A DNA stretch of 59,982 nt, counting the filler, from Dugesia japonica (lineage: Eukaryota): the NCBI GenBank assembly GCA_001938525.1. It is 5 parts of 5 records of this genome, joined end to end, with 100 filler letters (N's around TTAATTAATTAA, not from the genome) between each part and the next. Parts side by side here need not be neighbours in the genome. Positions count along the whole stretch, not along the records: positions 36,094 to 47,446 come from MQRL01606118.1; 4 more parts are not named here. One strand, given 5' to 3'. The notes under the pieces are model-generated. The model ran no database searches. It was not told the DNA's origin and saw only the letters and a program-made list of their open reading frames with translations. The stretch's first letter is position 1. Each line of letters starts with the position of its first letter. Below, piece after piece: positions 9,831-47,446 of this stretch. The translations under genes were made by a program, and so were the position numbers.

Positions 9831-10229
9831 GTATATGCTAAAATCAGTCAATTCAAGCAAGTTATCTGATTTATTATTACAATAATTCAATGCATTTATT
9901 TTTAGACTGTCGATTTTTAAATATAGCTCAGATTTAATCAGATAAAGATTTTTTGTCAAGAAACAATATTTTTTTTGGAAAAAATCTTGTAATTTAAATG
10001 TTTCAATTTTTATAGTTTTGTTTATTTCAATTTTTATGGTAAAGAGTATGAATTTGAACTTAATTAAAGTTTTTTGGTATTTGTTGTTAAATTTTCTGTT
10101 ACTTACTTATAATTTTATTGTTAATTTTATCAGTGTAAATAGGTTTAATTTATAATAATGTCAAATTTGAAAATTTTAATTATTTATTTAATTATAAAAC
10201 TTAAACAATGAAAAATATGTGAAAATTTT

Positions 10230-14518: not shown

Positions 14519-14657
14519 CTAGATATAAAATACAAAACATGAGAAAGTTATCTAAAATTTCTTTTTACTAAAACAATAAAATTAAATCATTTGTCAACAT
14601 TAAGGCAACGATGCTCCGGTTATAATAAACAATAATAAATAATAATTGTTTTGTGGT

Positions 14658-14757
14658 NNNNNNNNNNNNNNNNNNNNNNNNNNNNNNNNNNNNNNNNNNN
14701 NTTAATTAATTAANNNNNNNNNNNNNNNNNNNNNNNNNNNNNNNNNNNNNNNNNNNN
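14658..14757. other. Artificial scaffold linker N44-TTAATTAATTAA-N44
   Basis: Exact 100-bp spacer with stops in all six frames; occurs four times. Confidence 0.97.
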
Positions 14758-21203: not shown

Positions 21204-24200
21204 AAGCTTATTATTATCTAATGTGTCAAGATGGTATTGTAACTGGCGAACACGCCGGAATCACAGTTCTCACAAAAAGTCAGTAGCGGATGCAAATTGT
21301 AGAATCGTTGCCAAAGAATGTTCAAGAAACAATTTGTTCAATAATAAAAAGTATTTTGGCTACAAGAAAGAAGATGCTAAAGAGTGGCTACAATCAATTG
21401 AAGATTTTGTAACCATAAATTCTTTAAATTTATCTGCAGCATTCAATTTATTGCTGCACGGTGACGCAAAGTACATCAAGTCAAAAACATTTTTGTAAAA
21501 ATCGGCGATTTGAGCCAAGTAAATCAACGATCAAATGAAAGGTATGAGGATTTTGCTATTAGAGTGAGGAAGTTGTTAAGAGAAGTTTTATCGGTGAAGC
21601 AAACAGAAGACATGATCGTGAAGGATATAATTTCAAAAGAAATGTGCTCCGGCAAAGTAAAGGAGTCAATCGCAATGAACCCAGATATGTCCTTGGAAGG
21701 AATTGAGAAATTGACGATAAATTTTGAAAATTCAATGAGTATTGAAGGAAAATCAGAGGTTATTGCAATTGGAGATAGCAAACGAGAATATAGGCCGACA
21801 TACGCAGCAGTAACAAGTATTAAAAGACCAATTAGACACAATATACCACAGGTAATCAAACCATTGGTAAATAATCAAGGAAGACAGTATTCCAACTCAA
21901 ATTGAGGACTGCAGGTTTAAGAGAGAAGACAACCTGTGGAGAGGTTGAACGAATACGATAAGTCCTAAAGACCTATGGTTTCCATGAAGCATATAGCAAG
22001 AAGAGTATATAACAAAGAGAAAGGGTTACTGCGACTTCAATCAGGGGAATGTTATTGTTGTGGTGAGTCCGGTCATGTCAGAAACAAGTGTCGATTGAAT
22101 AAGTGTTGTTTGATATGTGGTAAGGAAAATCATTTTTTTAATAATTGTAGCTTATTGAAAAATAACACAAGAAAAGTTCAGTGTATTCATGAAGAAAATA
22201 ATTCAGACGATCTAGCATATAATTATGACGATATGAAACATGATGAAAGCAGAGATTTCGAAGAAAANNNNNNNNNNNNNNNNNTATATGATCAAAACAC
22301 AAATAGACAAGATCATAATTTAAACGACAGACGCTCAATGGCATACATTTCGTCTATGGAGTGGTTGAATTAAATGCTGCAGATGCAGGAAATCGAAATG
22401 CTATGATGTTCATGAAGGCAGATGGTAGATGGTGGAGTTTGGTTGAATGTTGTGGAAAGGTGATAGAGATATTATAAGATACAGGCGCAGCAGTAACGGT
22501 GATGTTAGAAGATAAGTAGAGAATGTGCGGAAATCAGTGCTATTAGAAGGTTTTTTAGGAGTAGAAGGCGAGCTAAATTTATGAGCATGGAGGTCCATGA
22601 TAGATTTGTAAAGACCAGTGTCAGGTAGATTATAGTGCGAAATAGTTTCGGCTAAAACGTCGATGAGTATAGAAAGGAAATCTGAAAGCTTTATTGATTA
22701 AGACGCTATCTTAGATATGTCGACTGATAGGGCTTTAAAGAAAACTTTTCTTTTCACAGAAAAGCCGAAGATACGATTATTGAGGCACCACATAGTTTTT
22801 TGGAGAAGATAAGCAAGGGTGCGATTGTGGTTTCTAATTTTGATGAGATTACCGTCAATATTACGGTAATCATACATATCTATTAGAGCAGCATTCAGTG
22901 CTAAAGCAATAACATGTTTAGGAGAGTTCAAAGCTTTGGTTAGTTGGAATGGAATGATTAAGAATATCTAGATTACGGTAGTTAAAGATATAAATCCGAG
23001 TTTTGTTGGTGGTATGAATATTATTTCAGGTTTTGGATTGAAGCTTTTTTTTGAGAGTTGCAATGAATTCGATAGATTTGGAAGTCTTAGGTTTCACATA
23101 TCGGGGTGAAGAAAGAGGACAAAGAACTTTAAATATTTTTGGATCCAATAATTTGTCAAAGTGCACAGAATTAGTATTGAAATATGGTACTATTTTTATG
23201 GCTTCGGAGTTCGATTTAGAATGTACAAATATGGTAGCACATTGTATAAAAACCGTAGGGACTCCAATAAGTCAAAATCCAAGACGAATGGAGATGCAAA
23301 TGGAATCTAAAGTGGATGATATGATCTCGAATTTGTTGAAAATGGGGATAATTAGGAAATGTCATAGTCCATGGAACTCGCCATTCGTAGTTGTGGGAAA
23401 AAAGGGCGGGACGATTAGAATGGTCAGGACTATAAGAAGATTAATGAGGTTACAGAGAAATTTAGTTTCCTCATAACAGATCCGCAAACCATATTCAATA
23501 TGTTGGCTGGAGCTTCCATTTTTTCGTCATTAGATTTAGGACAAGCGTATTATCAAGTATGATTGGATGAATCTTCATAATTAAAAACAGCATTTTTGAC
23601 AAAAAATGGTCAGTTTTGCTATAACCAAATGCCATTCTGGTTGTCAACAGCCCCAGCGACTTTTCAAAGTCTCATGCATTATTCGAGTATATCCTTTATA
23701 ACGGAGTCGCGGCTTATTTAGACGATGTCTTGGTTTACGGGGCAACAGTAGCCAAACACGATAGAAACCTAGGAGGTTTATAGACAAATACAAAAAGCTG
23801 GATTAAGACTCAATCCAAAGAAGTGTAGTTTGTATAAAACTGAACTTAGTTTTTAGGTCATAAAATATCAAAAGAGGGAATAAGTACAAATAATGATATG
23901 ATTAAGAAAATTGCTGAAGCGGAAATTACAAAGTGCACTAAACAATTACGGTCATTTCTTGGCTTGGCAAATTACTACCGTAAATTTGATTTTAACTTTG
24001 CTCAAATTGCCAAACCATTATATGACGCTACTAGGAGACATGTGAAAGACAAACAATGGAATGAAGAGTGTCAAGAAATTTTCCAGAAACTCAAACATTC
24101 TTTATCAAATACTCCAGTATTGGCATTCCCAAACAAATATGATTATTTTATCTTAGACACAGATGTATGTTTTAGCGGTATTGGTGCTGTTCTTAGTCAG

Positions 24201-24975
24201 GTACAAGATGGATATGAAAAGTTTATCGCATATGGATCGAAGCTTTTAAGTGCTCATGATAAAGGGTATTGTGTGACACGGAAGGAGTTACTGGTTATAT
24301 ATAAGTATGTGCTTTACTTCAAGCGCTACTTATACGATAAGAAATTTGATATACGTACAGATCACAAAGCACTCAAATTTTTGAAGTCCACNNNNNNNNN
24401 NNNNNNNNNNNNNNNNNNNNNNNNNNNNNNNNNNNNNNNNNNNNNNNNNNNNNNNNNNNNNNNNNNNNNNNNNNNNNNTCATAACAATGCAGACGGATTA
24501 TCTAGAATATTATTGAGCTATTGCTCTCAATGTTAAAGTGAACACGTAGAAGGAAAAATAGAAAAATGCAGAGTAAGATTTTTAAATGCAATTGCATCAG
24601 ACGAATTTAATATTGAAACGTACCGTGCCGCTTAAGATGAGTATTCTGTTTTGGAAGCGATTAAATTTTTTATTATGAACCCTTCTTCGATAGTATTGTC
24701 AAAGGTACGCGGTAATATTGAGATTTCAGTGGAAAGAATGAAAGGTCAAGATGTTGAGAAGAAGGTACACAGAGTTTTTGAAGTGGGACAGGAAGTGTTG
24801 GTAAAAATAGATTCACAAAAAAGAAGAAAAGACGGTAATGTATATGAAGGTCCTATAAAAATCGTTGCTTTCTCGACGGATCATCAAGTCAAACTAGAGT
24901 ATTCAGATGGAATGAAATACAGAAGAATAGAATGGCTGAAAGATTATCACAGTTCTTAAAGAAAAGGAGAGTAAC
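21204..24975 (+). mobile_element. Decayed Ty3/Gypsy element (PBS, gag, pro, RT, RNase H, internally deleted integrase, PPT)
   Basis: PBS-like TGGCGAACACGCCGG at 21244. Knuckles CYCCGESGHVRNKC and CLICGKENHFFNNC. RT motifs SPWNSP, DLGQAYYQ, YLDD; RNase H LDTD...AYGS...RKELL; integrase tail GP..I...RRIEWLK; purine tract at 24958-24970. Confidence 0.9.
22380..22905 (-). mobile_element. Probable non-LTR (LINE) RT fragment inserted antisense into the Gypsy gag-pro junction
   Basis: More GC-rich insert replacing the protease N-terminus. Minus-strand TPKKPSNSTDFRTFS resembles the LINE RT PK...DFRPIS motif. Confidence 0.4.
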
Positions 24976-24977
24976 AA

Positions 24978-25077
24978 NNNNNNNNNNNNNNNNNNNNNNN
25001 NNNNNNNNNNNNNNNNNNNNNTTAATTAATTAANNNNNNNNNNNNNNNNNNNNNNNNNNNNNNNNNNNNNNNNNNNN
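24978..25077. other. Artificial scaffold linker
   Basis: N44-TTAATTAATTAA-N44. Confidence 0.97.
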
Positions 25078-28000
25078 AACCAAGACTAGTAGAGAGAATA
25101 AACAATTTTAAAAGCGAACAACAAACAAAAAATTGGAGTCGGACCAAACAAATTCATGCCACTCGAGAAGAGGATGATAATGAGAATGACGAGATATTTT
25201 CTGAGACCATAATAGAAAATGAAGATCCGAGAAGAAAATACCCAAAATGCAGTGAGCTCCATCAGTAGAAGAGTTGATCGTAGCCATTCATTAAACAAGA
25301 TGGTATTTGATTAATCTCAAATGGCCGAGAAATTTAATGAGATGACCAAAGTTTGAGAAAAAGTTAGACTTTAGAGAGCTCAATGCATTAACAGAAAGAC
25401 AAGCTTTTCCTATGCCAAATGTGAACGAAATGCTAGATGCTTTGGAGGGTTCGCAATATTTTAGTTCAACAACNNNNNNNNNNNNNNNNNNNNNNNNNNA
25501 ACTCAGTTAAGATTCTCAAGAGAATACAGCTTTTTAGACAAAACATGGACAGTTTTGTTTTAATAGAATGCCTTTTAAAATTGCAGTACCACAAGGTAGG
25601 TTCCAGGATATGATAAATACAGCAATCGGGAAAATAAAAGGAGCAATAGTTTATCTGGACAATATTCTTATATTTAGCGAAACAAAGGAGCATCAATATG
25701 AAATAATCAATAAAGTGTTGACAGAAATTAANNNNNNNNNNNNNNNNNNNNNNNNNNNNNNNNNNNNNNNNNNNNNNNNNNCTCAAGAGAATACAGCTTT
25801 TTAGACAAAACATGGACAGTTTTGTTTTAATAGAATGCCTTTTAAAATTGCAGCACCACAAGGTAGGTTCCAGGATATGATAAATACAGCAATCGGGAAA
25901 ATAAAAGGAGCAATAGTTTATCTAGACAATATTCTTATATTTAGCGAAACAAAGGAGCATCAATATGAAATAATCAATAAAGTGTTGACAGAAATTAAGA
26001 AAGCTAGTTTAAGAGTTAATCCGGAGAAATGTCAATTCATACGAAAGGAGATCAAATTTTTGGGACACGTCATCAGTAAAGAAGATGTCAAAACAGATCC
26101 AACTAAAATAGAAGCAATTAAAAACTTTGGTAAACCAAAATGCGTTAAGAAGATGAAGTCTTTTAGTAATTTGCAATTACTAATTACTATCGCAAGTTTA
26201 TTAAAGATTATTCGAAAACAGCTAGATTGTTGTAACAACTGTGTAGTGGGCCAAGTAACAAGAAAATTGAATGGGCGAATGAATTAGAAAAAGTTTTTAA
26301 TGTAGTGAAAGAAGCACTAATGATGTCTCTAATATTATGTTTTCCAGATATAAATAGAGGATTNNNNNNNNNNNNNNNNNNNNNNNNNNNNNNNNNNNNN
26401 NNNNNNNNNNNNNNNNNGGACAACAATGGTCAATGAAGAGTAATTGGATATGGGTCGCACGCAATGACGAGCCACAAAAAAGGATATTGTACTACGCAGA
26501 AGGAATTACTCGGAATTTACTACTTTCGTATTCTTTTCAAACACTACTTATATGGGAAGAGATTTATTCTTAGAACAGACCACAAGGCTATCACTTTTAT
26601 GCTAAATACCAAGAAACCGATTACATCACAGTTTCAAACCTGGATGAATTATTTGAGCAGTTTAGATATAAAATTGGAATATAGAAAAGAATCGCTTCAT
26701 ACAAATGCAGATATATTATCAAGAAGTAAATGTGATACATGTGCACAATGTCTAATGTCACATGAAAATCCCAAAAGTGGAAAATTAAAAACAACGAACT
26801 TAAATACAGTAAATATTTAAGAGAAAAAAGGCGATTTTAGAGAAAAATATGAAGGAACATGGATTCCTGATGATAAAGTAGAAGAAGTTATAATGAAGAT
26901 ACACCACCTTTTGTGTCAAGCTGGAACATAAAAGGTAGCAGCGTATTAAAGCATAAATATATAGCAAAACTTTTGTGGAGCAAATTAAGAGGTTGTACAA
27001 AGCTGTATAACATGCCAGAAAGCTAAAGTGTTGACAACAAAAACGATGGAAGAAACGAAAATGACACAGCAAGCCGACATTTTTGAGATGTTATTTATAG
27101 ATGTGTGTGGAACACTACAGGAGACAAGAGGTCGAAAAAATATGTTCTCGGTATAATAGATCAATGCAGGTATATAGTCTTGATAGCAATGACAAAACAA
27201 TATGAAGATACCATACGGAAAGTAATAATGGAGAAGTGAATATTAAAGTTCGAGTGTCCGAGAGAAATTTNAGTTTATTGTGGAAAAGCATTTGAGTCTA
27301 AATCAATGAAAGATTTGGCAGCTGAACATGGAATTACCCTTAGGTTTTTAAGTCAATATCATCATAACATAAATAAAGAAATCAAGAGACAATTTAGAAC
27401 TATGCAGCATATGATAAATGAGACACTTAAAGAAAGACAAACCTTGGATTGAGTGGGTGTGTTGCCAGCGATAGAATTTACCTTGAATGCTACAAAACAG
27501 AAAACCATCGGGAAAATCCCTGCTAAAGTCGTATTTGGGAAGAGAATTAGCAGAAAAAGATGAACAGAAACAAATTCTCAAAGATTAAACACAAAGCAAG
27601 ATGAAGAGATTCTAATCAAAATGACTATTCGCGGTCATTTATGATGTCTTAGTGAAAGTTAAAACAAGAAACAGGAACCAAGATCTGGTTTGAAGGACCC
27701 TATAAGATCAAAAGAAACGTTCGTGACAGACATTACATCCTAAAAGATACAGACGGAAAACAGCTTGAAGAAAAGATAGAGAAGATCAAAAAATTTCTTA
27801 AAATGGGGATATAAGATAGTTTTTTAAAACAGATTAAAATTTTTTGTTTTATAAGGCGAAATTTATTAAAGTTAAATTTGTATTTAAAATTTGTATTAGA
27901 AGAATAAAATATAAAATTAAATAAATAACATATGTATTTTAGTGTATTTTAAAATTTGGTAATAAAGATTTAAAATTAAAATTTAAAAACTGCTGATATT

Positions 28001-35924: not shown

Positions 35925-35993
<69 letters not shown>
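35925..35993. repeat. (AAT)n microsatellite
   Basis: Perfect TAA/AAT run up to the scaffold end. Confidence 0.97.
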
Positions 35994-36093
35994 NNNNNNN
36001 NNNNNNNNNNNNNNNNNNNNNNNNNNNNNNNNNNNNNTTAATTAATTAANNNNNNNNNNNNNNNNNNNNNNNNNNNNNNNNNNNNNNNNNNNN
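35994..36093. other. Artificial scaffold linker
   Basis: N44-TTAATTAATTAA-N44. Confidence 0.97.
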
Positions 36094-36333
36094 AGTATTA
36101 AAGATTGGACAAGTTTTTATCCAATATTCTGTTTTGATTGTTCTGCACAAGATGAAAAACTAACTGTTAATAATGTAGATTTAACATGCCACATGACTAA
36201 AGATTCTGAATTAAGTGGTAATTTGTATTGGTTAATACTATTAGAGAAACATGTTGAATTGAAAATAAGTAATGGTAAAGTAATGTTTGTTGAAAATATT
36301 AAAGGAGAAGATGTTAGAAAAATTAAATTATAA
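36094..36333 (+). CDS. Major capsid protein (double jelly-roll, hexon/PY-like), C-terminal 79 aa
   Basis: Open frame from the scaffold edge: SIKDWTSFYPIFCFDCSAQDEKLTVNNVDL...LYWLILLEKHVELKI. This resembles the YPIFxFDxSxQxE end of Polinton MCPs. Missing from the ORF track because it has no start codon. Confidence 0.75.
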   Translation, partial: SIKDWTSFYPIFCFDCSAQDEKLTVNNVDLTCHMTKDSELSGNLYWLILLEKHVELKISNGKVMFVENIKGEDVRKIKL

Positions 36334-36357
36334 TTAGGTTAAATTATTATTAAAAAA

Positions 36358-36786
36358 ATGGTTGGTGAAAAACAATTGTGTTTAATATGTAATAGATATT
36401 TATCAAAATCATATATAGTAAAACATAATAAACTTTGTGTAGAAAAGCATTCATCTACTGGTGATGAACCTATTCAATCGACTCTAGGATCAGATTTACA
36501 AAATAGTAAAATAACAAATACTTTATTAAAACCTTTTACAACAGAAAAGTATCCTGGTGAAAGACATTTGTTTAATCATAATTATACTGGACCAGGAACT
36601 AGATTGGATATTAGATTGGATGAGAATATGCATCCAAAACCAGGTGAAGAACCTGTAAATAGAGTTGATCAAGCTGCTTTAAAACATGATATTAGTTATA
36701 ATAGTAATGATATTAGAGATAGACATTTGGCTGATGTTAATCTAATACATGATTTAAATAATATAGAAAATCCATCATTGGGTTAA
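36358..36786 (+). CDS. Zinc-finger + parvovirus-VP1u-type phospholipase A2 (N-terminal part of a probable PLA2-integrase fusion)
   Basis: CLIC-x12-HNKLC finger; Ca-binding loop NYTGPG; DQAALKHDISY (catalytic HD); RHLAD. Confidence 0.9.
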   Translation: MVGEKQLCLICNRYLSKSYIVKHNKLCVEKHSSTGDEPIQSTLGSDLQNSKITNTLLKPFTTEKYPGERHLFNHNYTGPGTRLDIRLDENMHPKPGEEPVNRVDQAALKHDISYNSNDIRDRHLADVNLIHDLNNIENPSLG

Positions 36787-36810
36787 AAAGTTCAAAGAGG
36801 ACTAGTTAAA

Positions 36811-37740
36811 ATGGCAATGAAGGGTAAAATAATGTTTGGTGGTGGATTAAAGAAAGAATTAAAGTCTACTGAATTACAGGCTATTGAACTACAGGCTACT
36901 GAATTACATAAACCTTTTAATAAAAATAAAAAGTTTGTCAAAGTTGTATTATACTTTAAAGATGAAACATGGTCAGCTGATTTAATGTTTATAGGACAAT
37001 TAAGAAAACTTGTTCCAGTTTTAATTGTAATTGATTTATATACTAGATTTTTATTTATTGATGTTTTGGAAAATAAAACTGGACAAGAAGTAACAAATGG
37101 ATTTGAAAATATAATTGAAAAAAGTAATCGTATACCAAATAATTTATGGGTTGATCATGGACGAGAATTTTACAACAAAACATTTCAAGAGTTTTGTGAT
37201 GAAAATAATATTAATTTATATTCAACTTCATTAAATACAGAAATGAAAGGTAAAGCAGTTTTTGTTGAACGTGTAATTAGAACATTCAAAAGAAGATTGT
37301 ACAAATTATTTACTAAACAAGGAAATCAAAAGTGGGATGAAGATTTATTAAATTCAATAGTTGATGATTATAATAATACAGTTCATAGTTCGATAAACAA
37401 AACACCAACTGCAGCCAGCAATCATGTTAATGATAAAGTTAGTAAACAAGTTGAAAAGAAAACAGTTAAATGGAATCAAACTAATAAAAATTTCAAAACA
37501 CCAATCAAGAATAAATTAAAGATTGGTGATAGAGTTAGAATATTTAGATTTAAAGACAAGTTTGAAAAAGGTTACACAATAAACTGGACAAAAGAAATTT
37601 ATACAATTTATAAAATCAATAGAGAAAATAATACATCACAACCATTTGATGGAATATTAACTTATAGTATTATAGATAAAGATGGAAATGAAATTTTGGG
37701 TAGGTTTTATAGAAATGAATTACAGTTAACTAGTTTGTAG
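36811..37740 (+). CDS. Retroviral-type (rve) DDE integrase of Polinton type
   Basis: LHKP, WSADL (D), LWVDHGREF (D), VERVIRTFK (E), YNNTVHSSI, KIGDRVRI...KGY..NWT.EIY. No chromodomain. In frame with the upstream PLA2 ORF. Confidence 0.96.
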   Translation: MAMKGKIMFGGGLKKELKSTELQAIELQATELHKPFNKNKKFVKVVLYFKDETWSADLMFIGQLRKLVPVLIVIDLYTRFLFIDVLENKTGQEVTNGFENIIEKSNRIPNNLWVDHGREFYNKTFQEFCDENNINLYSTSLNTEMKGKAVFVERVIRTFKRRLYKLFTKQGNQKWDEDLLNSIVDDYNNTVHSSINKTPTAASNHVNDKVSKQVEKKTVKWNQTNKNFKTPIKNKLKIGDRVRIFRFKDKFEKGYTINWTKEIYTIYKINRENNTSQPFDGILTYSIIDKDGNEILGRFYRNELQLTSL

Positions 37741-37766
37741 CTAATAGCTAATTTACTTTTAATAAA

Positions 37767-38549
37767 ATGGCTCAAGTAAATCCAATTTGGAAAAGTAGTA
37801 CAAGTAAATTTAAACATGAAATATTTCCACCACAATTTAGATGTTTAATTATTGGTTCAAGTGGATGTGGTAAAAATGTTTTACTATTAAAGATTTTACT
37901 AACACCAAATTTTATTGATTATAATAATTTGATTATATTTTCAACTACTATTAATCAAACTGAAATCCAATTACTTTACCATGGATTTAGTCAAGGTTTA
38001 AGTAAACAAGATTTAGTAAATTTATTTTCAGATGAAATGCAAGATAAAATTCCTAAAGATTTAAATCCGCAAGAAATAATCTTTTGGTATTCGAGTGAAG
38101 TATTATCAAGAAGTACTGATGAGTTAAAAGAAGATTTAGATAGTTGGATAAACATTACACTATCAACTAAAGCATCTGAAATTGTTCCATGTGATAAATT
38201 ACCTAGTAATAAAAAGAATTTAATTATTTTTGATGATGTAGTAAATGAAAAAAATCAATCAATACAGAAATCTTACTTTACTAGAGGAAGACATAACAAT
38301 TGTAATGTAATTTATATATCACAAACATATTATGATCTAGATAAAAATAGTATAAGGAATAATAGTAATTGTTTTATTTTCTTTAAATTAGGCAAAAGAG
38401 ATAAAGATAATGTTTATCATGATTTATTCAGTAATATTTTTAATAGTAAAGAAGAATATGATTTTGAAACCAATCACCATTGGAAAACAAAGTATAATTA
38501 TTTTTATCTTGATAAAGAAAAAGAAATGTTAGTTGACTCACTATTCTAG
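37767..38549 (+). CDS. A32/FtsK-like DNA packaging ATPase
   Basis: Walker A GSSGCGKN (atypical N), Walker B LIIFDD, RGRH arginine finger, YISQ motif, IRNN. Confidence 0.93.
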   Translation: MAQVNPIWKSSTSKFKHEIFPPQFRCLIIGSSGCGKNVLLLKILLTPNFIDYNNLIIFSTTINQTEIQLLYHGFSQGLSKQDLVNLFSDEMQDKIPKDLNPQEIIFWYSSEVLSRSTDELKEDLDSWINITLSTKASEIVPCDKLPSNKKNLIIFDDVVNEKNQSIQKSYFTRGRHNNCNVIYISQTYYDLDKNSIRNNSNCFIFFKLGKRDKDNVYHDLFSNIFNSKEEYDFETNHHWKTKYNYFYLDKEKEMLVDSLF

Positions 38550-38576
38550 TTCATAAGCTAAATTATTATATAAAAA

Positions 38577-39206
38577 ATGGCAAGTAACACAACTGAACAA
38601 GAATTATTAGACTTGATAAATAGTAACAAAAGTAAATCAATTAAAATTGATGGTAAAAATTATTGGATAGGTAAAAGAAGTAAAGAATTAATAAAAAAGA
38701 GTATACATGATAATAAACTAGAAGTAGAAGGTGGACTATTTCCATTATTAGGATTAATACCAGCAATTTTGGCAGGAATTGGAGCAGCTGCACCTACAAT
38801 CGCAGGAGTAACTGCAGCTGTTGCAGGAACTGCAGGCGCTGCTGCAGGAATTGCGAAAGTTGTTTCAAATTCCCGTGAAGCTAATAACAAACTTAAAGAA
38901 CCTAAATTGTTGGATCAACGATTGATGGAAAATAAAGTTGATAATAAAGTTGATAATAAAGCTATTGAAAATAAACCTATTGAAAATAAAGTTGAAAATA
39001 CATTACCCCAGTCTGTAGGAACTGGAATATATTTAAATCCCTATCAAGGATCAGCTATCCACAAATATCTAAAACCTTATTTAATTAATAATGTTAATGG
39101 TTCTAAAGTAATAAAGAAAAAGAAATTTAAAAAAGGAATTGAAATTATTCCAAGTGGTAAAGGATTATATTTAAATCCATATTCGTATGAAAGTGAATAC
39201 AAATAA
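38577..39206 (+). CDS. Adenovirus pX-like core/membrane-active virion protein
   Basis: VEGG-LFPLLGLIPAILAGIGAA resembles adenovirus pX GG-ILPLLIPLIAAAIGA; Gly/Ala-rich hydrophobic helix; two GxG(I/L)YLNPY motifs. Confidence 0.7.
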   Translation: MASNTTEQELLDLINSNKSKSIKIDGKNYWIGKRSKELIKKSIHDNKLEVEGGLFPLLGLIPAILAGIGAAAPTIAGVTAAVAGTAGAAAGIAKVVSNSREANNKLKEPKLLDQRLMENKVDNKVDNKAIENKPIENKVENTLPQSVGTGIYLNPYQGSAIHKYLKPYLINNVNGSKVIKKKKFKKGIEIIPSGKGLYLNPYSYESEYK

Positions 39207-39218
39207 AACTTAATTAAA

Positions 39219-40130
39219 ATGAGTGATTGGATTGAAAGTAGAATAAAGTGTTTAAAAGAACAAATTATTGGAATTGAAAAATATGACAAGTTTATAGTTG
39301 ATCAAGTTTCATTTGGTAATAACTTTGGAATTAACAACTTTCCAACTAGTTTGGTTAATAACTTAAGTGAACAACCTATTAAAGATCAAGTTAAAGACCA
39401 AGTTAATGAACAACCTATTAAAGTTCAACCATTAACAAAATCTATAGGTTCTACAGAAGATTCAAAAAATGAAGAAAAAAATGAACTTATTAAAAATCTA
39501 ATTAATAAAACAATCAAGGATGGTAGATTAAAATTGAATAAAAAAGATTTTATAGTTAGTAAAAAGTATGATTTACCTCCAACTTTAACTCCTCACCTTA
39601 TTTTAAATGATGAAGATTCTTTTGATTCTTTTCAAATTGGTTCATATATTATTTGTATAAGAGAAAGAATTAAAAATGTTAATTCTGAAAAATATTTTTC
39701 ATTTGATAACCAATCTGGATATATTAAAGAAACATTATTTAATCAAGAATTATTAAATTTAATGTTTGGCTATGGATCTAATGATGATGAAGCTAAATCA
39801 ATTTATTTAAAATTATTTAATAACTCCAATTTAAATTCAAGTAATTATATTAGAACATGTGGAAGAAAAGGAAATTTTGATGAAGTGTTTAAGAAATTTA
39901 AAAAAGTACCTGAATATAAAGAAATTGATACTGTAAAAATTAGTGGTGAAGGATTTAAAATAACTAATAATCCAATTAAATTATTAGAAAAGTTTGTTAT
40001 AATAACTAGTGCAATGAAAGCTGGTCATGATGGAATGACGACAGAGTTTAACAAAACAGTTGATCAAATGTTGGATAGAAAATTAATAACTGAAGCAAAA
40101 TATAATAGACTTAAAGAAAAGTATAATTAA
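39219..40130 (+). CDS. Conserved Polinton protein of unknown function
   Basis: Intact 303-aa ORF. C-terminal NPIKLLEKFVIITSAMKAGHDGMTTEF resembles the PxxLxxRLxLLxASxxAGN helix motif I recognise from Polinton proteins. Confidence 0.65.
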   Translation: MSDWIESRIKCLKEQIIGIEKYDKFIVDQVSFGNNFGINNFPTSLVNNLSEQPIKDQVKDQVNEQPIKVQPLTKSIGSTEDSKNEEKNELIKNLINKTIKDGRLKLNKKDFIVSKKYDLPPTLTPHLILNDEDSFDSFQIGSYIICIRERIKNVNSEKYFSFDNQSGYIKETLFNQELLNLMFGYGSNDDEAKSIYLKLFNNSNLNSSNYIRTCGRKGNFDEVFKKFKKVPEYKEIDTVKISGEGFKITNNPIKLLEKFVIITSAMKAGHDGMTTEFNKTVDQMLDRKLITEAKYNRLKEKYN

Positions 40131-40832
40131 ATGTCACATCAATTTTTAATATATGGTCAAGAACATGAATTAGAAACTAAATTATCAAATGGTTTAAATT
40201 TAAAAGGTAATTGGGAAATTGCTTTAATTTGGTTCACTACTTCTAATATGATTTTAAATATAAATAATAAAAATAATAAATATAAAATTAATAATGTTGT
40301 AAAAGAATTAACGCCAGGCGCTTATGAAATTAAACAAATTGCCGAGCGTTTGGCTATTGATTATATACAATTAACATTTGATGTTTCAACAGGCAAAGCC
40401 TTTATTCAAGTTAGTGAAAAATTTTCTGATAAAGGTGAATTAAAACTTGAATTTGATTCAACTTCTTTTTTTCATACCATATTAGGATATAATACTTTTA
40501 GTGGTTATAGTTATTTACTTGTAAAAGATAAGATTTTCATTTCAGAAAATAAAATAAACATTATTGACATTAATACAATTAATATTATTTGTAATATTGT
40601 TCAAGGTAATTATTTGAATAATAAAGAATCTAATTTGTTACATAGTTTACCAATGGGAACAGTTCCTTATGGATATCGTATAACAGACAGACCAGCTAAT
40701 CCAATTTACTCTCAAATTAATACAGATTTTATATCTAGAATTAAATTAAATATAGTAGATGAAAATTTTAATACAATAGATTTTGATGGTGAAAAAATAA
40801 ACATTTTAATTCACTTGAGGAAAGTGGTTTGA
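40131..40832 (+). CDS. Minor capsid protein (penton, single jelly-roll; PX)
   Basis: L..NWEIAL, PGAYEI, INIICNIV, VPYGYRI..P..PIY, I.L.IVDEN...IDF.GE....IHLR. Confidence 0.88.
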   Translation: MSHQFLIYGQEHELETKLSNGLNLKGNWEIALIWFTTSNMILNINNKNNKYKINNVVKELTPGAYEIKQIAERLAIDYIQLTFDVSTGKAFIQVSEKFSDKGELKLEFDSTSFFHTILGYNTFSGYSYLLVKDKIFISENKINIIDINTINIICNIVQGNYLNNKESNLLHSLPMGTVPYGYRITDRPANPIYSQINTDFISRIKLNIVDENFNTIDFDGEKINILIHLRKVV

Positions 40833-40853
40833 TCAACTAAAGTTGGTTAATAA

Positions 40854-41447
40854 ATGACTACTAACACAAATTACAACATAACAGACTTTTTAAAAACATT
40901 TGGTATTACATCAACTACTAATTTTGATTTGATGGATCATGTTAAATTTTTACAATTCAAATGCCCAGTTTATATTTTAATGAAAAATGAAATGGAAGAT
41001 TATGCAAACGCAAATGCAAACGCGAATGCGAACGCAAACGCGAATGCAGATGCTAACACAGATCCAATTAATTGTTTTATAATAAATTATCAAAATACAA
41101 ATCAAAAAGGTAGTCATTGGGTTGCTTATGTTCAATGTTGTATACCAACTACGAATGCAAACGTGAATGCAGCTTGTAAATTACATGGTTTTTATTTTGA
41201 TTCTTATGGACTAACTCCATTGGATTGTATTAAAAAGATTTCAAATTATTCCTTAAAATGGAATACAACTAGAGTTCAACCTTGGAATACTAAAATATGT
41301 GGTATTTTATGTTTATACTTTATTTATAAAATACAACTAGTATTAGTTGATAGACTGTCTTTTAATTCACCTGGAATAGCAAACTATAAAATGAAATTTG
41401 ATTTAATAATTAAAGAATTAAAAACTACTTTCAAAGATTGGTTATAA
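40854..41447 (+). CDS. Adenain-like cysteine protease (virion maturation)
   Basis: IIN...GSHWVA (His), YFDSYG (Asp), VQ...ICGILC (Gln/Cys); contains an (Asn-Ala)n insertion. Confidence 0.93.
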   Translation: MTTNTNYNITDFLKTFGITSTTNFDLMDHVKFLQFKCPVYILMKNEMEDYANANANANANANANADANTDPINCFIINYQNTNQKGSHWVAYVQCCIPTTNANVNAACKLHGFYFDSYGLTPLDCIKKISNYSLKWNTTRVQPWNTKICGILCLYFIYKIQLVLVDRLSFNSPGIANYKMKFDLIIKELKTTFKDWL

Positions 41448-41467
41448 CAAAGTTATAGCTTTAATAA

Positions 41468-42637
41468 ATGACTCATAGTTTTTCAAATGTTATAATGAAT
41501 AGGTTTGGTGAAACATTGGACAATAAAAATACTAGCCAATTACTTGAAGCATTTGATGGTAAAGTTGAAAGTAAAATTAATTTAAAATTAAAAATACATG
41601 AACATCAAGAAGAAATTAAAAATAAAAAATATGATGATAGAGAATATGTTGATAAAGTAGTAGATAAAAAAGTTGAACAATTGACTGTAAAGTTTAATAG
41701 TCAACTAACTAAACAACAAGTTACTATTGATACTTTATTAGAATCCAACAAAATACAATTGAGTGATAGGAAAAAGGAATTCATTAATCTAAAAAGTGAA
41801 ATGTTAATTCAAATTGAAAACTTTAAACAAATTAAAAACTTTTATAAAGATGAATTTGATACCAAGATAAATAAATTAAATAAACAAGTTGATAGTTTAA
41901 AAGTTGAAGTTGATAAATTAACAAGTAAATGTAGTGAAGTTAAATGTAAAGAGCTAAAAGAAAAAGTAGATAAATTAAAATATGATTTTGATTATTTAAA
42001 ACAAACTAAAAATGATGTATTAAAAGATTTGGGATTTAAATTATCTCAACTTCCATGTATGTATCATGAAGATTATATTGATATTCTGAAGATTAAAGAA
42101 AATTTAATAAAAGAAAGAGAAGAAAAGAAAATTTATTCCCAAGATTTAATTAATGAATTAAGAAATAAAATTGAAAATTATTTTCCATTTAAATTAGATG
42201 AAAATACAAAAACAAACAAGAATATATTATTTAAATTAACAACAGATAAAATTATAAATGACTTACCAACTGTTGTAGTTTATAGATTAAAAAAATTTCA
42301 AGCTAATAAAAATAATACACCTTTAGTGTGGAATTATATTATTAATTCTGCTTACTTGTTAAATAATACTTTGGATTTAACTTTTAATTTACTTTCAAAA
42401 GAAAAAAAATTATTTTTCCATTTCACTTTCGGTAAATCATTTTATAAAGTTGAAATATATATAGAATCTATGTTTGGCTATGTTTATAAATTTTTAATAC
42501 CACTAAATAATTTAAATGAAAAAGGATATATTGTAGATACTGATAGTTTACTGCGTGATAAATGGGATTATGTAAAAATAACCATTACTGGAAAATGTTA
42601 TTTTAAATCTTTAACTATATCAACTCAAATTAAATAA
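41468..42637 (+). CDS. Coiled-coil protein with beta-rich C-terminus (candidate fibre/spike)
   Basis: Intact 389-aa ORF; heptad-rich K/E/L region over about aa 30-235, then an aromatic, beta-strand-like domain. Function is inferred only. Confidence 0.6.
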   Translation: MTHSFSNVIMNRFGETLDNKNTSQLLEAFDGKVESKINLKLKIHEHQEEIKNKKYDDREYVDKVVDKKVEQLTVKFNSQLTKQQVTIDTLLESNKIQLSDRKKEFINLKSEMLIQIENFKQIKNFYKDEFDTKINKLNKQVDSLKVEVDKLTSKCSEVKCKELKEKVDKLKYDFDYLKQTKNDVLKDLGFKLSQLPCMYHEDYIDILKIKENLIKEREEKKIYSQDLINELRNKIENYFPFKLDENTKTNKNILFKLTTDKIINDLPTVVVYRLKKFQANKNNTPLVWNYIINSAYLLNNTLDLTFNLLSKEKKLFFHFTFGKSFYKVEIYIESMFGYVYKFLIPLNNLNEKGYIVDTDSLLRDKWDYVKITITGKCYFKSLTISTQIK

Positions 42638-42644
42638 TTTAAAA

Positions 42645-43307
42645 ATGGAAGCTGTTAAATTATATCCAGATTTAGATTTAAATAATGATTTAAATAAACC
42701 AAAACCAAATTCATTGGAAGAATTAAAAAATAAATTAAATCAAACAAGAATTAAAGATTTTGAAAATGATCTAGAGTGGATAGAAGATAAACTAAAACAT
42801 TATAAAAAATTAAAAAGAAGATGGTCAACATTTGATAATGGAGTTAGATTTACTGATGTTGGTATTTCAACATTTGTAGGCATTGCTTCAGGAACTGTAA
42901 TAATAATGTCAACTTTATCATTTACAATACCTTTAATTGCAACTGCTATAATAACTGGAATACCAATTATTTATTCAATTGCCCATGGTTCATTGCGAGT
43001 TGGTTTAATTAAAAAGAGAATAACCAAATACAATAATAAAATTAAATTATTAGAAGAAACTAAAAATAAATTGTTTCTCTTTCAAACCAAAGCATTAGAA
43101 GATGATGAATTAAGTAATGAAGAAATTAAAATTAGTAAAGATATAATTACTAAACTTAAAACACAATTAGTTGGTCAACAAGTTGAAGCCGATAGTTCAA
43201 AGCAAATATCTGATCAACAATTGTCTGATCAATTGGGTCAACTATCAAAAACATTTCCAATAATGATGGAGCAAATTGCTAACCAACTCAAAAAGAAAAA
43301 TTTATAA
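42645..43307 (+). CDS. GasderminX-like membrane protein of adintoviruses
   Basis: Basic helix, then a double hydrophobic segment (VGISTFVGIASGTVIIMSTLSFTIPLIATAIITGIPII), then a coiled coil ending KALEDDELSNEE. Confidence 0.7.
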   Translation: MEAVKLYPDLDLNNDLNKPKPNSLEELKNKLNQTRIKDFENDLEWIEDKLKHYKKLKRRWSTFDNGVRFTDVGISTFVGIASGTVIIMSTLSFTIPLIATAIITGIPIIYSIAHGSLRVGLIKKRITKYNNKIKLLEETKNKLFLFQTKALEDDELSNEEIKISKDIITKLKTQLVGQQVEADSSKQISDQQLSDQLGQLSKTFPIMMEQIANQLKKKNL

Positions 43308-43383
43308 AAAAATGATCAAGTAAAAAAAATTGTGGTTTAATACCCCAACCCGTCAAGCCAAAGATTTATTATAATAAAAGAAC

Positions 43384-46300
43384 ATGTCAACTGAAAATGA
43401 TGACCTTAATATTATTATTGAAAGAGCAATTTTAGAAAATAGATATTGTGATATTTGTAATCAATGTTTTAGAACAAACTATCATTTAAAGACTCATCTA
43501 GAAGGTAAATACCACAAAAGAAAAGTTGAATTATCAAATATAGGTGATTATTGGAGAACATGTCACAGATGTAATTTACAATTTAATAATTTAATAAACT
43601 ATAATAGACATATAAATGGACGTAGACATCTTTCCAACGTCCATTTTAATAGAAATATTGAACAAGAGAAAAATCTTAAAGAATTATACAAGGATTATAT
43701 TCAACCTGAAGGTTATTATAAAGTAGAAACATGTCATCAATCAATGATTAAATTAAAACAAGACTTTATAGTTTGTAAAAATGATAAACAACCTGCTATT
43801 GAAAACATTCATCAATTTGAAGATAGAATTAATTTTAATCTTTTAAAAGAATATTCAAATGAAATGAAGAACTTGGTTGATATATTTTTCAGCAAATATC
43901 ATAAAGTTGCAGTTTCAATAACTTGTTCTACAACATATACAAAAGATTTTGTTGGAGAAGATAGTATCACTAATCAACAATGGATAAAGGATTATGATGC
44001 ACATTCACAGAAAATTACAATGTTTAGTCAAATTTCTGAAATGATTGATAAAATGTTGGATCAACTTTCAGAAGATATTTTCACAACAGAGACTCAAGGA
44101 TCAGGTTGGTCATTTGATAGATTTAATTCTTTTACAATTGAACTCTCTAATTATGAATCTCTTGTTGGCCAAGGATATGTTCCATTGCCTATAGAATGGA
44201 AAAATATTCCTGGAATTTTAAATATCAAGAATCCAGAATATGATTTAAATTGTTTTAAATATTGTATAATGTCACATCTTGATCCTTTATTAAATGATTT
44301 AGTTGCCAGTTATCAAAATCTTAAAACTATTAAAACAATTGGTTTAAATTGGACTGATATTAAAATGCCAATGTCTATAAAAGATATTCCTAAATTTGAA
44401 AGATTAAATGATTTTCAAGTTAATGTCTTTGAAGTAATTCCAAGTAAAACTAGTCCTAAAATTCAAAAACTATATTCTTCACACTTGGAAACTAATCCAC
44501 TTTCTACTGTTAGAAAATGTAATTTACTTTTACATGAAAAACATTACATTTTAATTAGAAATTTAAACAAAATAAATACAAAATCTAAACATGTAAATGA
44601 ATTGTGTATTAACTGCATGAACTGGAAACGTGATAAAGAATCATTAACGAATCATCAACTACTTTGTTTAAAACAGAAAGATGCACAAATTAAATTTACT
44701 TTTGCAGATAAATACAAATTTTCTAAATACTACATGAAAAATAAAAATCCATTTGTAATTTATTTTGATATTGAAACTTATAAACAAGGAGATAATTATT
44801 CTAGTGATTATTCAAATGAATTAATTCCATTCGCTTTAGGATTGTATTTAGTTAGTAATCATCCTAAAGTTAATAATATTTACAAATCATTCCAAGGACC
44901 TAATTGTATTTCTAAATTCATTGATTGGTTATTAAAATTTAATCATTTATTTGAACAATTAATTAACAAATCTTTTAAATCTTATTGTTTAGATGATGAT
45001 GATCTTGTAGAGTTAGAATCCAGTAAATGTTATTATTGTGCATCAAATGCACTAATGTGCGATGCACTTTCGATAAATCCTTGGACAGGATCTTCTAGAG
45101 GCTATGCACATAGTGAATGTATTAAAGTTTATGAAGATCCAAAGAAGTTTTTCATCCCAGTATATGCACATAATTCTAGTAAATTTGATAATCATTTTAT
45201 ATTTAAAGAAATATGTAAACTTCATTCAAGTAAAATTAGTAATTTAATTCCATTGAATGATGATGTTTACATTTCATTTTCTTTAGAAAGAATGAGATTT
45301 TTAGATTCTTTAAGAATGTGCAGTGGTCATTCGATTGAAAAGATGGGTCAGGATTTATTAAAAAGTAAAAATCATCCACATCTTGATAGTTTTAATCTAA
45401 AACCATGTAAAGGAATCTATCCATATGATTATGTAAGTGGTAATAATTATAAAGAAGTGAAACTAAAGTTAATAAACTACTATCCACTTATTGATGATTT
45501 TTACAATGTTTTGAAACAATCTGAACTATCTGAATCTGATTTTCAAACATTTCAAAATGATTATTCAAAATTTGATAATTTATTAGATTATACAATGCAT
45601 TACATGAAGCTTGATGTAATAATTCTAGCAGACTTTTTCGAAAACTTTAGGTCTTTATCACTAGATAGGAATGAAATTGATCCAACATATTGTTATTCTG
45701 CACCAGGTTTAACTTGGGAAATTGGAATGAAAGTATCAAAAGTTAAATTAATGAATGCCAATAACTTTAACTTTGACATGTTTCTAACTATAGAACAAGG
45801 AATTCGAGGTGGTTTTTCAGGAGTATGTGGTAATAGACATGTTGTAGCAGATGAAAATCATACACTAAAATGTTTAGATGAGAACAGTTTATATGCTGCA
45901 TCAATGACAAAACGATTACCTTGGGGTGAAATGAGTTGGGATAATGACAAAACTTATGTTAGAACTAATGATAATTTTACAATTAATGAACTTGGTGAAA
46001 AGATTTATATGGATTATATTTATACAGTTGATTTAATTTATCCTGATGAAATAAAAGAAAGGACTAAATATTATCCATTAGCAGTAGAAAAACAATCTAT
46101 TGAGTATAAAGAGCTGAGTGACTATCAAAAACATTTATTAAAAATTATGAATCAAAATCAATCCAATAATGAAAAGTTGATAATGACTCAGAAAAATAAA
46201 TATAATTATATAGTTATGGGCCAAGTTTTGGATTTGTATTTAGATCAGGGATTGATTTTAACAAAAGTTCATAGTAAAATTAATATTCCAACAAAATATT

Positions 46301-47130
46301 GGTTAAAAGATTATATACAATCTAATATTAATTCTAGAGATGAAGCTAAAGTTAATAATGATGATTTCGGAAACTCATTTTTCAAACTATTAAACAATGC
46401 ATTTTTTGGCAAAACTTTGGAAAATGTTAGAAATCGTATCAATTTATTTCTAGCTACAACTAAAAAGGAATTATTAAATCAAGTTTCTAAACCTGGTTAC
46501 AAATCTTCAATAATAATTAATGAACAAGTTGCTTTGATAAAATCATTCAAGAAACAAATAATGTACAACAAGTTTCAATATATTGGATTCTTTGTTCTAG
46601 ATTATGCTAAACTAATCATGTACGATTTTGTTTATAATCAATTAAATGTAAGAATTCCCAACTCAATCAACAATGAACAATGGAAAATACACTACTCTGA
46701 TACAGATTCTTTATTTATTGAATTTATACATCCAAACATGAATTGGAAAGAATTAGATAATAAAACACAAATTTCAAATCTATTTGGCAATAACTTGTTT
46801 CAAATGAAGGATGAATATCCTAATGAAATAATTAAGGAAGCATTCTTTATAAAAGCCAAATCATATTATCTAGTAAAAGAAAAGAAAGATTTAAAGAAAC
46901 ACAAAGGAATAAGTAATACAAACAAGTTTACAGCGAATCAATATAAAAATGTATTGTATAAAAATATAAGAATAGCTGGAACAAACTATACAATTAATTC
47001 TAAATTACATCAAGTTGTACAATCTCATCAAAACAAACAAGCTTTAACAGCATTTGATGACAAAAGATTTATTCTAGATGATGGAATAACTACATTACCA
47101 TTTGGATATTTAGTAAATAATCAACAATAA
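43384..47130 (+). CDS. polB: Protein-primed family B DNA polymerase with two N-terminal C2H2 fingers
   Basis: GSGW, CFKYC, ExoI YFDIET, ExoII HNSSKFD, KGIYPYDY, ExoIII YMKLDV, IRGG, motif A DENSLY, motif B KLLNNAFFGK, motif C YSDTDS, KGI, DDKR...TLPFG; 1248 aa uninterrupted. Confidence 0.98.
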   Translation: MSTENDDLNIIIERAILENRYCDICNQCFRTNYHLKTHLEGKYHKRKVELSNIGDYWRTCHRCNLQFNNLINYNRHINGRRHLSNVHFNRNIEQEKNLKELYKDYIQPEGYYKVETCHQSMIKLKQDFIVCKNDKQPAIENIHQFEDRINFNLLKEYSNEMKNLVDIFFSKYHKVAVSITCSTTYTKDFVGEDSITNQQWIKDYDAHSQKITMFSQISEMIDKMLDQLSEDIFTTETQGSGWSFDRFNSFTIELSNYESLVGQGYVPLPIEWKNIPGILNIKNPEYDLNCFKYCIMSHLDPLLNDLVASYQNLKTIKTIGLNWTDIKMPMSIKDIPKFERLNDFQVNVFEVIPSKTSPKIQKLYSSHLETNPLSTVRKCNLLLHEKHYILIRNLNKINTKSKHVNELCINCMNWKRDKESLTNHQLLCLKQKDAQIKFTFADKYKFSKYYMKNKNPFVIYFDIETYKQGDNYSSDYSNELIPFALGLYLVSNHPKVNNIYKSFQGPNCISKFIDWLLKFNHLFEQLINKSFKSYCLDDDDLVELESSKCYYCASNALMCDALSINPWTGSSRGYAHSECIKVYEDPKKFFIPVYAHNSSKFDNHFIFKEICKLHSSKISNLIPLNDDVYISFSLERMRFLDSLRMCSGHSIEKMGQDLLKSKNHPHLDSFNLKPCKGIYPYDYVSGNNYKEVKLKLINYYPLIDDFYNVLKQSELSESDFQTFQNDYSKFDNLLDYTMHYMKLDVIILADFFENFRSLSLDRNEIDPTYCYSAPGLTWEIGMKVSKVKLMNANNFNFDMFLTIEQGIRGGFSGVCGNRHVVADENHTLKCLDENSLYAASMTKRLPWGEMSWDNDKTYVRTNDNFTINELGEKIYMDYIYTVDLIYPDEIKERTKYYPLAVEKQSIEYKELSDYQKHLLKIMNQNQSNNEKLIMTQKNKYNYIVMGQVLDLYLDQGLILTKVHSKINIPTKYWLKDYIQSNINSRDEAKVNNDDFGNSFFKLLNNAFFGKTLENVRNRINLFLATTKKELLNQVSKPGYKSSIIINEQVALIKSFKKQIMYNKFQYIGFFVLDYAKLIMYDFVYNQLNVRIPNSINNEQWKIHYSDTDSLFIEFIHPNMNWKELDNKTQISNLFGNNLFQMKDEYPNEIIKEAFFIKAKSYYLVKEKKDLKKHKGISNTNKFTANQYKNVLYKNIRIAGTNYTINSKLHQVVQSHQNKQALTAFDDKRFILDDGITTLPFGYLVNNQQ

Positions 47131-47215
47131 TCAATAGTCAATAGCCAATAGTCAATCAACAATAGCCAATCAACAATAATCAATAAATAATAAACAATAA
47201 TAAATAGTCAATAAA
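47118..47215. repeat. Low-complexity (CAATAGY/CAAT)n tract with AATAAA signals after polB
   Basis: caatagtcaatagccaatagtcaatcaacaatagccaat...aataaa. Confidence 0.7.
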
Positions 47216-47446
47216 CTAGCATTTCCAAACTACAAACACTTTTGAACAACAAAAAACATTAATCATACTCCAGAAAACAGTTTATAAACTGCTGTTTTTA
47301 ACTACAGATTACAGTAAATAAACACTGAAAACAGATGATAAACTACATTTTTATTTTAATATTTTTAGTAAAAAACCACGCATTTACAGACTATTTGCTA
47401 CAGTCTACAGTTAAATAACGCCAGAAAAGCGCCTTTTTTACTTCAT

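Follow-up and report, generated by a model that had tools for sequence, protein, structure and literature searches.

The DNA analyzed here (the window) is a stretch of 59,982 nucleotides from Dugesia japonica (GenBank assembly GCA_001938525.1), in which the 11.35-kb scaffold MQRL01606118.1 (positions 36094–47446) is an integrated Polinton/Maverick. GC content is about 24% here, that of AT-rich eukaryotic DNA. The scaffold encodes a protein-primed DNA polymerase B, an rve-type DDE integrase, an A32/FtsK-type ATPase and a C5 cysteine protease, the genes by which Polintons are recognized, and the following features were assigned around the integrase gene:

35994..36093, no strand: 100-nt assembly spacer N44-TTAATTAATTAA-N44, repeated at 14658, 24978 and 47447
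36094..36333, + strand: probable 3' part of the gene for the major capsid protein, truncated at the scaffold edge (weak tblastn match, E 0.001)
36358..37740, + strand: zinc finger-PLA2-linker-rve integrase fusion gene, 460 codons with one in-frame stop (translation, Pfam, homologues)
37767..38549, + strand: A32-like packaging ATPase (PF04665, E 2e-9)
38577..39206, + strand: candidate stand-alone pX-like core protein, without PLA2; GG/GxG motifs (lead only)
40131..40832, + strand: penton/minor-capsid-like ORF, by assumption (homologues in the related loci L013, L015, L044, L081 and L105)
40854..41447, + strand: C5-family (adenain-like) cysteine protease (PF00770, E 0.023; H, D, Q and C motifs present)
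43384..47130, + strand: protein-primed DNA polymerase B, 1248 aa, open (PF03175, E 4e-23)

Several of these assignments are of lower strength. The 79-codon remnant at the scaffold edge weakly matches (tblastn, E 0.001) a 429-aa ORF of L044, which we take to be a major capsid protein. The ORF at 38577..39206 reached an ESM Atlas score of 0.87 to a cluster in which 20% of the members carry Adeno_PX, which serves as a lead only, and the ORF at 40131..40832, without any Pfam match, is presumably a penton/minor-capsid-like protein. The Pfam match of the C5 protease is weak (PF00770, E 0.023), but its homologues are found in many related loci. The scaffold lacks the left end of the element; as terminal repeats, the 104-nt inverted repeats found at 35991 and 47446 were considered and rejected, being N-spacers of the assembly, and the N44-TTAATTAATTAA-N44 unit appears to be a six-frame-stop spacer.

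Within the fusion gene, the following parts were distinguished:

36379..36441, + strand: small zinc-finger-like motif (C8, C11, H24, C28; weak Pfam match to zf-C2H2_ZN292, E 0.019)
36565..36837, + strand: parvovirus-type PLA2 domain including its last helix, spanning the stop (PF08398 and stand-alone PLA2 profile)
36784..36786, + strand: copy-specific TAA inside the PLA2 domain (in no contig covering 36784 from runs X1, X2 and X3)
36832..36846, + strand: MFGGG junction with a hydrophobic-G-x-G motif, candidate maturation-protease site (GxG/GG in 86 of 96 fused homologues)
36856..36908, + strand: 15-nt tandem repeat in the linker (3.5 copies, 84% match)
36901..37740, + strand: rve integrase from the ELH motif, with D208, D266 and E304 (Pfam, residue check)

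In a single frame, 36358–37740 (+) translates into 142 amino acids, one TAA and then 317 amino acids up to the TAG at 37738–37740, and translation of the 460 codons thus bore out the initial annotation, which had described a PLA2 and an integrase ORF in one frame split by a single TAA. Its statement that the catalytic residues of both enzymes are intact also held on residue check: the Ca-loop YxGPG (residues 76–80), HD (110–111) and D126, characteristic of parvovirus-type PLA2s, are present, as are D208, D266 and E304 of the integrase. The PLA2 domain matched PF08398 over residues 70–135 (E 6e-9, Pfam) and, weakly, AAV capsid proteins (E 0.024), and PF00665 (rve) was matched 3' of the stop (E 1e-10, Pfam), with no chromodomain matched in the integrase part. 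Weak zinc-finger matches comparable to the one here occur at the N-termini of two homologues, P0003 and P0005. MFGGG corresponds to residues 159–163. The linker that follows had been described as a 3x15-nt repeat; the repeat is real but lineage-specific, linker length across homologues ranging from 6 to 76 aa (median 17). Its last unit is the conserved N-terminal ELH motif of the integrase, and the repeat is a local duplication of this unit without conservation.

The TAA at 36784–36786 is, with high probability, a lesion private to this copy in a constitutive fusion. Contigs, rather than reads, were compared from three runs of the same organism from three studies (X1, X2 and X3), which show the state of the family; the runs, whose kinds are guessed, share at most 0.28 of sampled words with the window, and none is clearly its source. 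All 24 contigs covering 36784 (X1, 1; X2, 12; X3, 11) read another letter, and the depth of that letter equalled the total depth in each of the three runs; in one X1 contig the linker is 33 nt shorter with the frame kept. This comparison of other copies, which had been advised at the outset, indicates that the two ORFs are one gene. In addition, the peptide 3' of the stop reads as the tail of the PLA2 domain, as had been supposed together with a miscalled integrase start. Query residues 62–170, on both sides of the stop, align with a profile built only from 41 short stand-alone PLA2 proteins (E 1e-30), and columns 143–163, that is, the peptide after the stop, are filled in all 96 fused homologues, with shared residues at R147 (78/96), K157 (75/96), G161 (94/96) and G163 (79/96). 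Because this peptide belongs to the PLA2 tail, the last PLA2 helix contains the annotated integrase ATG (36811), and the TAA cuts this helix off from the upstream product. The TAA itself is ordinary decay, in this copy either a real mutation or an assembly error, and neither PLA2 nor integrase is probably made properly by this copy.

The joining of the two domains is not peculiar to this element. With an X placed at the stop, a homologue search among proteins of 253–805 aa returned 194 matches; PF08398 and PF00665 stand in one chain in 74 of the best 120 of these 194 according to precomputed Pfam, and both domains were recognized in 103 of the best 120 by our own profiles, which were built from these matches. 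A search for PLA2 and rve as single ORFs in related genomes had been advised in the initial annotation, and these results demonstrate that the PLA2-integrase fusion is a conserved and widespread architecture. Among the top 150 representatives at 50% identity, 34 carry both domains, with PLA2 first in 32 and the integrase first in 2, and the remaining 116 carry the integrase only; stand-alone integrases are thus the majority, and tethering is unneeded for Polintons generally. At the DNA level, 9 of 91 loci (L001–L091) are in-frame fusions without any lesion, four of which (L004, L010, L023 and L050) also carry the protease gene, and fused loci sit in Polinton neighbourhoods wherever the contig is long enough. 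The catalytic H, D and D of the PLA2 are kept in 96, 97 and 95 of 98 homologues, and each residue of the integrase D/D/E in 97 of 98. In one subgroup, comprising 20 fusions, the Ca-loop is changed, in most cases to AxGPF, and PLA2 activity is therefore not universal. The AlphaFold model of P0002, the homologue whose integrase is most similar to that of the window copy (56% identity), has a mean pLDDT of 85 and a pTM of 0.56, and consists of a helical PLA2, a lower-confidence break where the glycine motif lies, and a linker leading to an integrase whose fold matches the intasome integrases of PFV, RSV and Ty3 (best E 1e-14). P0002, P0003 and P0123, each scanned singly against viral contigs, gave no match.

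The boundary between the two domains carries a conserved glycine motif: 86 of 96 fusions have GxG/GG at the junction (chance, about 0.9%), 49 of the 56 fusions whose N-terminus is long enough have GG/GxG on the N-side of PLA2, and both reverse-order fusions have GxG at their junction. In the P0002 model the motif comes after the last PLA2 helix has ended, and pLDDT there drops to about 62. The initial annotation had read MFGG/G as an adenain site at the domain boundary, and of this reading the conserved glycine motif stands while the adenain consensus does not: the strict form, (M/L/I)xGG/x or (M/L/I)xGx/G, is present in the window copy and in just 10 of the 96 fused homologues, since K predominates at P4 and the hydrophobic residue stands at P3, the conserved motif at the junction being hydrophobic-G-x-G. 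The motif at the boundary is instead of the mavirus substrate type, GG|X or GX|G, in 86 of 96. In the available text on mavirus, the protease cuts GG|X and GX|G, virions contain the rve integrase together with the lipase-like hydrolase MV13, the latter in two fragments with a putative GK|G site, and two GxG sites are left uncut (PMC6048507). Stand-alone Polinton PLA2s also end in GxG (A2, with invariant G164 and G166; L040 and L086), and GxG is present in 5 of 9 small related genomes that lack the protease (L093–L101) but not in L109; for this reason GxG may be a structural helix cap. A census of GG/GxG over the ORFs of the element found no excess above chance and is therefore not counted as support, and a PDB search with the short-PLA2 profile gave no match. 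Cleavage at GxG by the protease of the element is plausible from these patterns.

A second arrangement was observed among relatives, in which 37 of 91 loci have the two domains in separate ORFs, many of them overlapping. With block-wise mapping, frame changes were found in 19 of 28 junction intervals versus 19 of 631 other intervals, the 28 including two spurious distant block matches (L014 and L065). In sister lineages the integrase frame goes to -1 just past the GxG motif. Among otherwise intact loci the integrase was at -1 in 12 (L012, L017, L020, L028, L033, L039, L044, L045, L051, L083, L106/107 and L108) and at +1 in 2 (L015 and L105; p 0.013), a tally in which L106 and L107 count as one element and from which L007 and L009, with most of PLA2 absent from the contig, are left out. 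Three loci with the shift inside the integrase (L032, L034 and L052) were not counted, and L082 was dropped as a junction frameshift, its shift lying past the WTDEL motif. When decayed copies are included, the -1:+1 ratio is 13:6 at the junction versus 10:9 elsewhere (p 0.51), without sign bias. Ten intact -1 loci span 43–76% integrase identity, and L083 and L044 have kept long open ORFs for other core genes. An in-phase slippery heptamer (X_XXY_YYZ) is present in 12 of 19 -1 loci versus 3 of 19 in-frame loci (p 0.007), with the frames overlapping, and 16 of 19 -1 junctions have no ATG in the integrase frame ahead of ELH.

Structure downstream of the heptamer was observed in part of these loci. 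Folding of 13 -1 loci yielded strong structures in L012, L106, L108, L009 and L039, a weaker one in L007, and none of significance downstream in the long-A-run loci L017, L020, L033, L044, L051 and L083 (z -1.2 to +0.9) or in L028. In the first five, hairpins begin 5–7 nt 3' of A_AAA_AAC, which ranks with the heptamers most prone to shifting on mammalian ribosomes in the available text of PMC5009743. Four of them (L012, L106, L108 and L009) share a common design in which A_AAA_AAC is followed, after 5 nt, by a 12-bp stem (z -2.9 to -4.5), and L039, distant in the tree, combines A_AAA_AAC with a different 9-bp stem (z -4.4). In the shared stem 47 of 48 cells are paired and 3 pairs have changed on both sides; three double changes were reached in 22 of 500 shuffles and the covariation score was reached in 146 of 500, for four related sequences, and the compensatory changes are thus suggestive. 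L018, which has kept the heptamer and lost part of the hairpin, is in frame, and the long-A-run group includes +1 or in-frame variants (L015, L105, L001 and L082). At the junction of the window itself neither a slippery site nor a hairpin was found.

Proteins that may be the products of termination at such junctions are abundant. A search with the L017 PLA2 protein returned 1601 matches, and one cluster has 2359 members. Among the short DUF5679-PLA2 proteins (101 top matches with the motif), K-K or K-N lies at most 9 residues past GxG in 95 of 101, versus 6 of 71 fused proteins, and these short proteins, which were seen as proteins without downstream DNA, stop a median of 8 residues past GxG. 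A quick integrase tree placed -1 and in-frame rows interspersed, with many forks open; it gives no direction of change, and the window row, a long branch, is insecurely placed. Taken together, the junction sequences make it likely that some sister lineages, at least, use programmed -1 frameshifting. The earlier idea that recoding sets the PLA2:integrase ratio is unsupported at this TAA and seems apt in sister lineages, as a -1 shift after GxG.

We propose that the integrase is encoded as the C-terminal part of a zinc finger-PLA2-GxG-linker-integrase polyprotein of the Polinton/Maverick. A place inside virions, with a role in entry, has been suggested for Polinton PLA2 (PMC4642659; PMC8502044, in the text available), and the PLA2 moiety, as a virion-interior entry protein, would take the integrase into the particle, where the C5 protease of the element may cut GX|G or GG|X at maturation, which would free PLA2 for membrane penetration and the integrase for integration. 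Most ribosomes in the frameshift lineages would terminate a few codons past GxG and yield free PLA2, and a minority would slip -1 at A_AAA_AAC or A_AAA_AAA and yield PLA2-integrase, the slip setting the PLA2:integrase ratio like that of Gag:Gag-Pol. It is fairly likely that PLA2 and integrase form a polyprotein of the Gag-Pol kind, which is constitutive here and, in sister lineages, probably regulated by frameshifting, and for tethered packaging plus cleavage we lean towards acceptance. The chances seem about even for the broadest reading, that a wide branch of Polintons independently evolved the full Gag-Pol logic by -1 frameshift, constitutive fusion or reverse-order fusion, with lineages switching among them, and that the integrase is a passenger released from PLA2 by the protease.

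Different explanations may account for parts of these observations. All other full-length ORFs of the element are open and three ATGs lie less than 50 nt 3' of the TAA, as might be expected if the stop were programmed for readthrough or re-initiation and in this way set the PLA2:integrase ratio. A programmed stop here, which had been offered as an alternative, is unsupported because the PLA2 fold is truncated by loss of its last helix and the stop is absent from other copies (0 of 24 covering contigs); the in-frame stops of relatives sit at scattered positions, ribosomes re-initiate poorly once they have translated an ORF of 142 codons, UAA leaks less than the other stops, and we regard such a signal as extremely improbable. 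The private lesion in one fused gene is thus preferred for the TAA. That the fusion is a neutral gene join, in which a stop was lost between adjacent genes with no packaging role, would agree with the prevalence of stand-alone Polinton integrases and with the unconstrained linker length; however, at least 32 clusters at 50% identity retain the fusion, it arose in the reverse order too, and an apparent recoding signal holds the link in other lineages, which makes a neutral join quite improbable beside a functional polyprotein.

Whether the polyprotein is cut may be viewed differently, as the fusion could be real and uncleaved, with GxG capping the PLA2 fold structurally and the uncut chain acting as a single protein of the virion or the intasome. 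The same GxG terminates stand-alone PLA2s, 86 of the 96 homologues do not have the strict adenain P4, and some mavirus GxG sites stayed uncut in the available account (PMC6048507), but the motif is also found N-side of PLA2 (49/56) and at both reverse-order junctions, and the P0002 model puts it past the last PLA2 helix, at lower confidence; an uncleaved chain is therefore unlikely, and cleavage remains the preferred reading. Similarly, the -1 arrangements might be unprogrammed, either as A-run contractions in decayed copies or assemblies or as transcriptional slippage on the A-run. The same pattern results when a Lys-Lys run loses 1 nt, the long-A-run group has +1 and in-frame variants, six long-run loci folded without a hairpin and the sign bias is gone once decayed loci are counted. 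Against this, the 6-A loci (L009, L012, L039, L106 and L108) keep an exact in-phase A_AAA_AAC with a strong hairpin, four of the five with compensatory changes in it, the ten otherwise intact -1 loci are as divergent as 43–76% integrase identity, the short PLA2 products form large families (as in the cluster of 2359 members), and L018, with the heptamer and a partly lost hairpin, is in frame. An unprogrammed origin throughout is conceivable and rather unlikely, and programmed frameshifting is retained for some sister lineages; for the long-A-run loci and L028, genomic A-run slippage or transcriptional slippage is possible.

These results bear on the route by which a Polinton integrase reaches the incoming genome and on whether Polintons truly work via particles. 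An integrase tied to a virion entry enzyme via a maturation-protease motif would be sensible mainly if particles are made. For annotation, both architectures lead to miscalled integrase starts, and a -1 junction may cause an element to be wrongly discarded as broken; if our interpretation is true, many "frameshifted, decayed" Polinton integrase genes would be intact and active. It would also mean that a DNA virus with a related integrase has converged on retroviral Gag-Pol expression.

Adintoviruses are among the closest known systems, with a parvovirus-type PLA2 beside pPolB, rve integrase, packaging ATPase and adenain-like protease (PMC8502044, available text). In Alpha adintoviruses PLA2X is described as a gene of its own, in which a pX-like domain forms the C-terminus of the PLA2 protein (Starrett et al., 2021; PMC8502044, available text), whereas here PLA2 is followed by and joined to the integrase, and the pX-like ORF (lead only) seems to stand alone. 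Predicted -1 frameshifts of adintovirus Penton and Hexon-Adenain concern the same virus group and other genes, and PLA2 and integrase are not named in this context in the text available (Buck et al., 2024; PMC11071296). Mavirus resembles the element in its clan CE protease with GG|X/GX|G specificity and in the presence of an rve integrase and a lipase-like hydrolase in mature virions, and differs in encoding these two by separate genes, the lipase being of the alpha/beta hydrolase type rather than a PLA2 (Born et al., 2018; PMC6048507, available text). No description of a PLA2-integrase fusion or frameshift was found in the portions available of the open full-text literature, which sets subscription papers, Repbase and annotation supplements outside the scope, nor in the accessible text of PMC8502044, PMC3671162, PMC5803895, PMC4642659, PMC11071296, PMC11131425, PMC8097293, PMC5009743 and the bioRxiv preprints 10.64898/2026.06.19.733378 and 10.64898/2026.10.13.758929.

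The PLA2 of the parvovirus VP1-unique region shares the YxGPG, HD and D motifs, a weak sequence match and tethering to another virion protein, but it is fused to the capsid protein, not to an integrase, and parvoviruses are not known to encode a maturation protease. In retroviral and LTR-retrotransposon Gag-Pol, the integrase is the C-terminal part of a virion protein, fused or -1 frameshifted, and is released by a protease. The likeness to the present system lies in an integrase as the C-terminal part, reached by constitutive fusion or by a -1 heptamer with RNA structure, and in the release by a protease that we propose. The Polinton differs in being a dsDNA element with a PLA2 entry enzyme as the carrier instead of a capsid, with a separately encoded cysteine protease and without reverse transcriptase. 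The finding here is the polyprotein architecture together with the probable programmed frameshift in relatives: the element itself is a Polinton, and its proposed expression logic is Gag-Pol-like.

At the junction between PLA2 and integrase of the related loci L012, L106, L108 and L009, A_AAA_AAC and a hairpin form a candidate -1 frameshift signal. Other frame states were observed in the following relatives:

L018, 670-750: in-frame fusion, with A_AAA_AAC kept and part of the hairpin 5' arm missing relative to these four loci
L032, 468-480, and L034, 1458-1470: in-frame junction, then a -1 offset at an A-run directly past ELH, the conserved integrase N-terminal motif

Judged from its sequence, L018 looks like a switch from frameshifting to constitutive fusion. 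The L032 and L034 elements are almost identical, and their offset may reflect either a relocated shift site or a lesion common to both. In the proteins P0115-P0117, a DUF5679 zinc ribbon is fused in frame to integrase, PLA2 being absent; in L024, a decayed copy, zinc ribbon and integrase, again without PLA2, are still connected by a -1 offset at an A-run (about 9900-10010).

Within P0080-P0119, a subgroup of 20 fusion proteins, located mostly on long contigs, carries an altered Ca-loop (mostly AxGPF in place of the usual YxGPG) and retains the catalytic HD of PLA2 and DDE of integrase, and PLA2 may have been kept in this subgroup as a carrier. Domain order also varied: P0294 and P0362 (491 aa each; two clusters at 50% identity) are reverse-order fusions, comprising, from N- to C-terminus, integrase, a chromodomain-like region, the glycine motif GxG and PLA2. 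In P0120, labeled Lottia gigantea by its source record, PLA2 is fused straight to the C-terminal part of integrase, a probable internal deletion of the PLA2-integrase fusion.

Further features were noted in the element and in the rest of the window, which is a eukaryotic, AT-rich assembly whose short scaffolds are separated by 100-nt spacers:

38577-39206: candidate pX-like ORF without PLA2 (lead only)
41002-41057: (Ala-Asn)n repeat insert inside the protease
47125-47216: 7-nt tandem array past the polymerase stop
3148-4294, minus strand: decayed fragment of a second polymerase of Polinton type, matching the element's PolB at E 2e-17
23898-26820: reverse transcriptase and RNase H remnants
12765-14540, minus strand: leucine-rich-repeat ORF, 591 aa

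As a lead only, the pX-like ORF suggests that a PLA2X gene was split when PLA2 joined integrase.

Among related contigs, L093-L101 are viral, about 3.3 kb, and carry a related PLA2; none matched the element's remaining proteins when these were compared. Polinton contigs L105-L108 are placed in bacterial and archaeal MAGs of a genome collection, probably through mis-binning. Over the PLA2 core (window 36514-36765) and the ATPase C-terminus (38194-38529), contig depth in three runs of the same organism sums to tens of thousands. This summed depth, which is not a copy number, suggests that the organism's Polinton population is very large and diverse.
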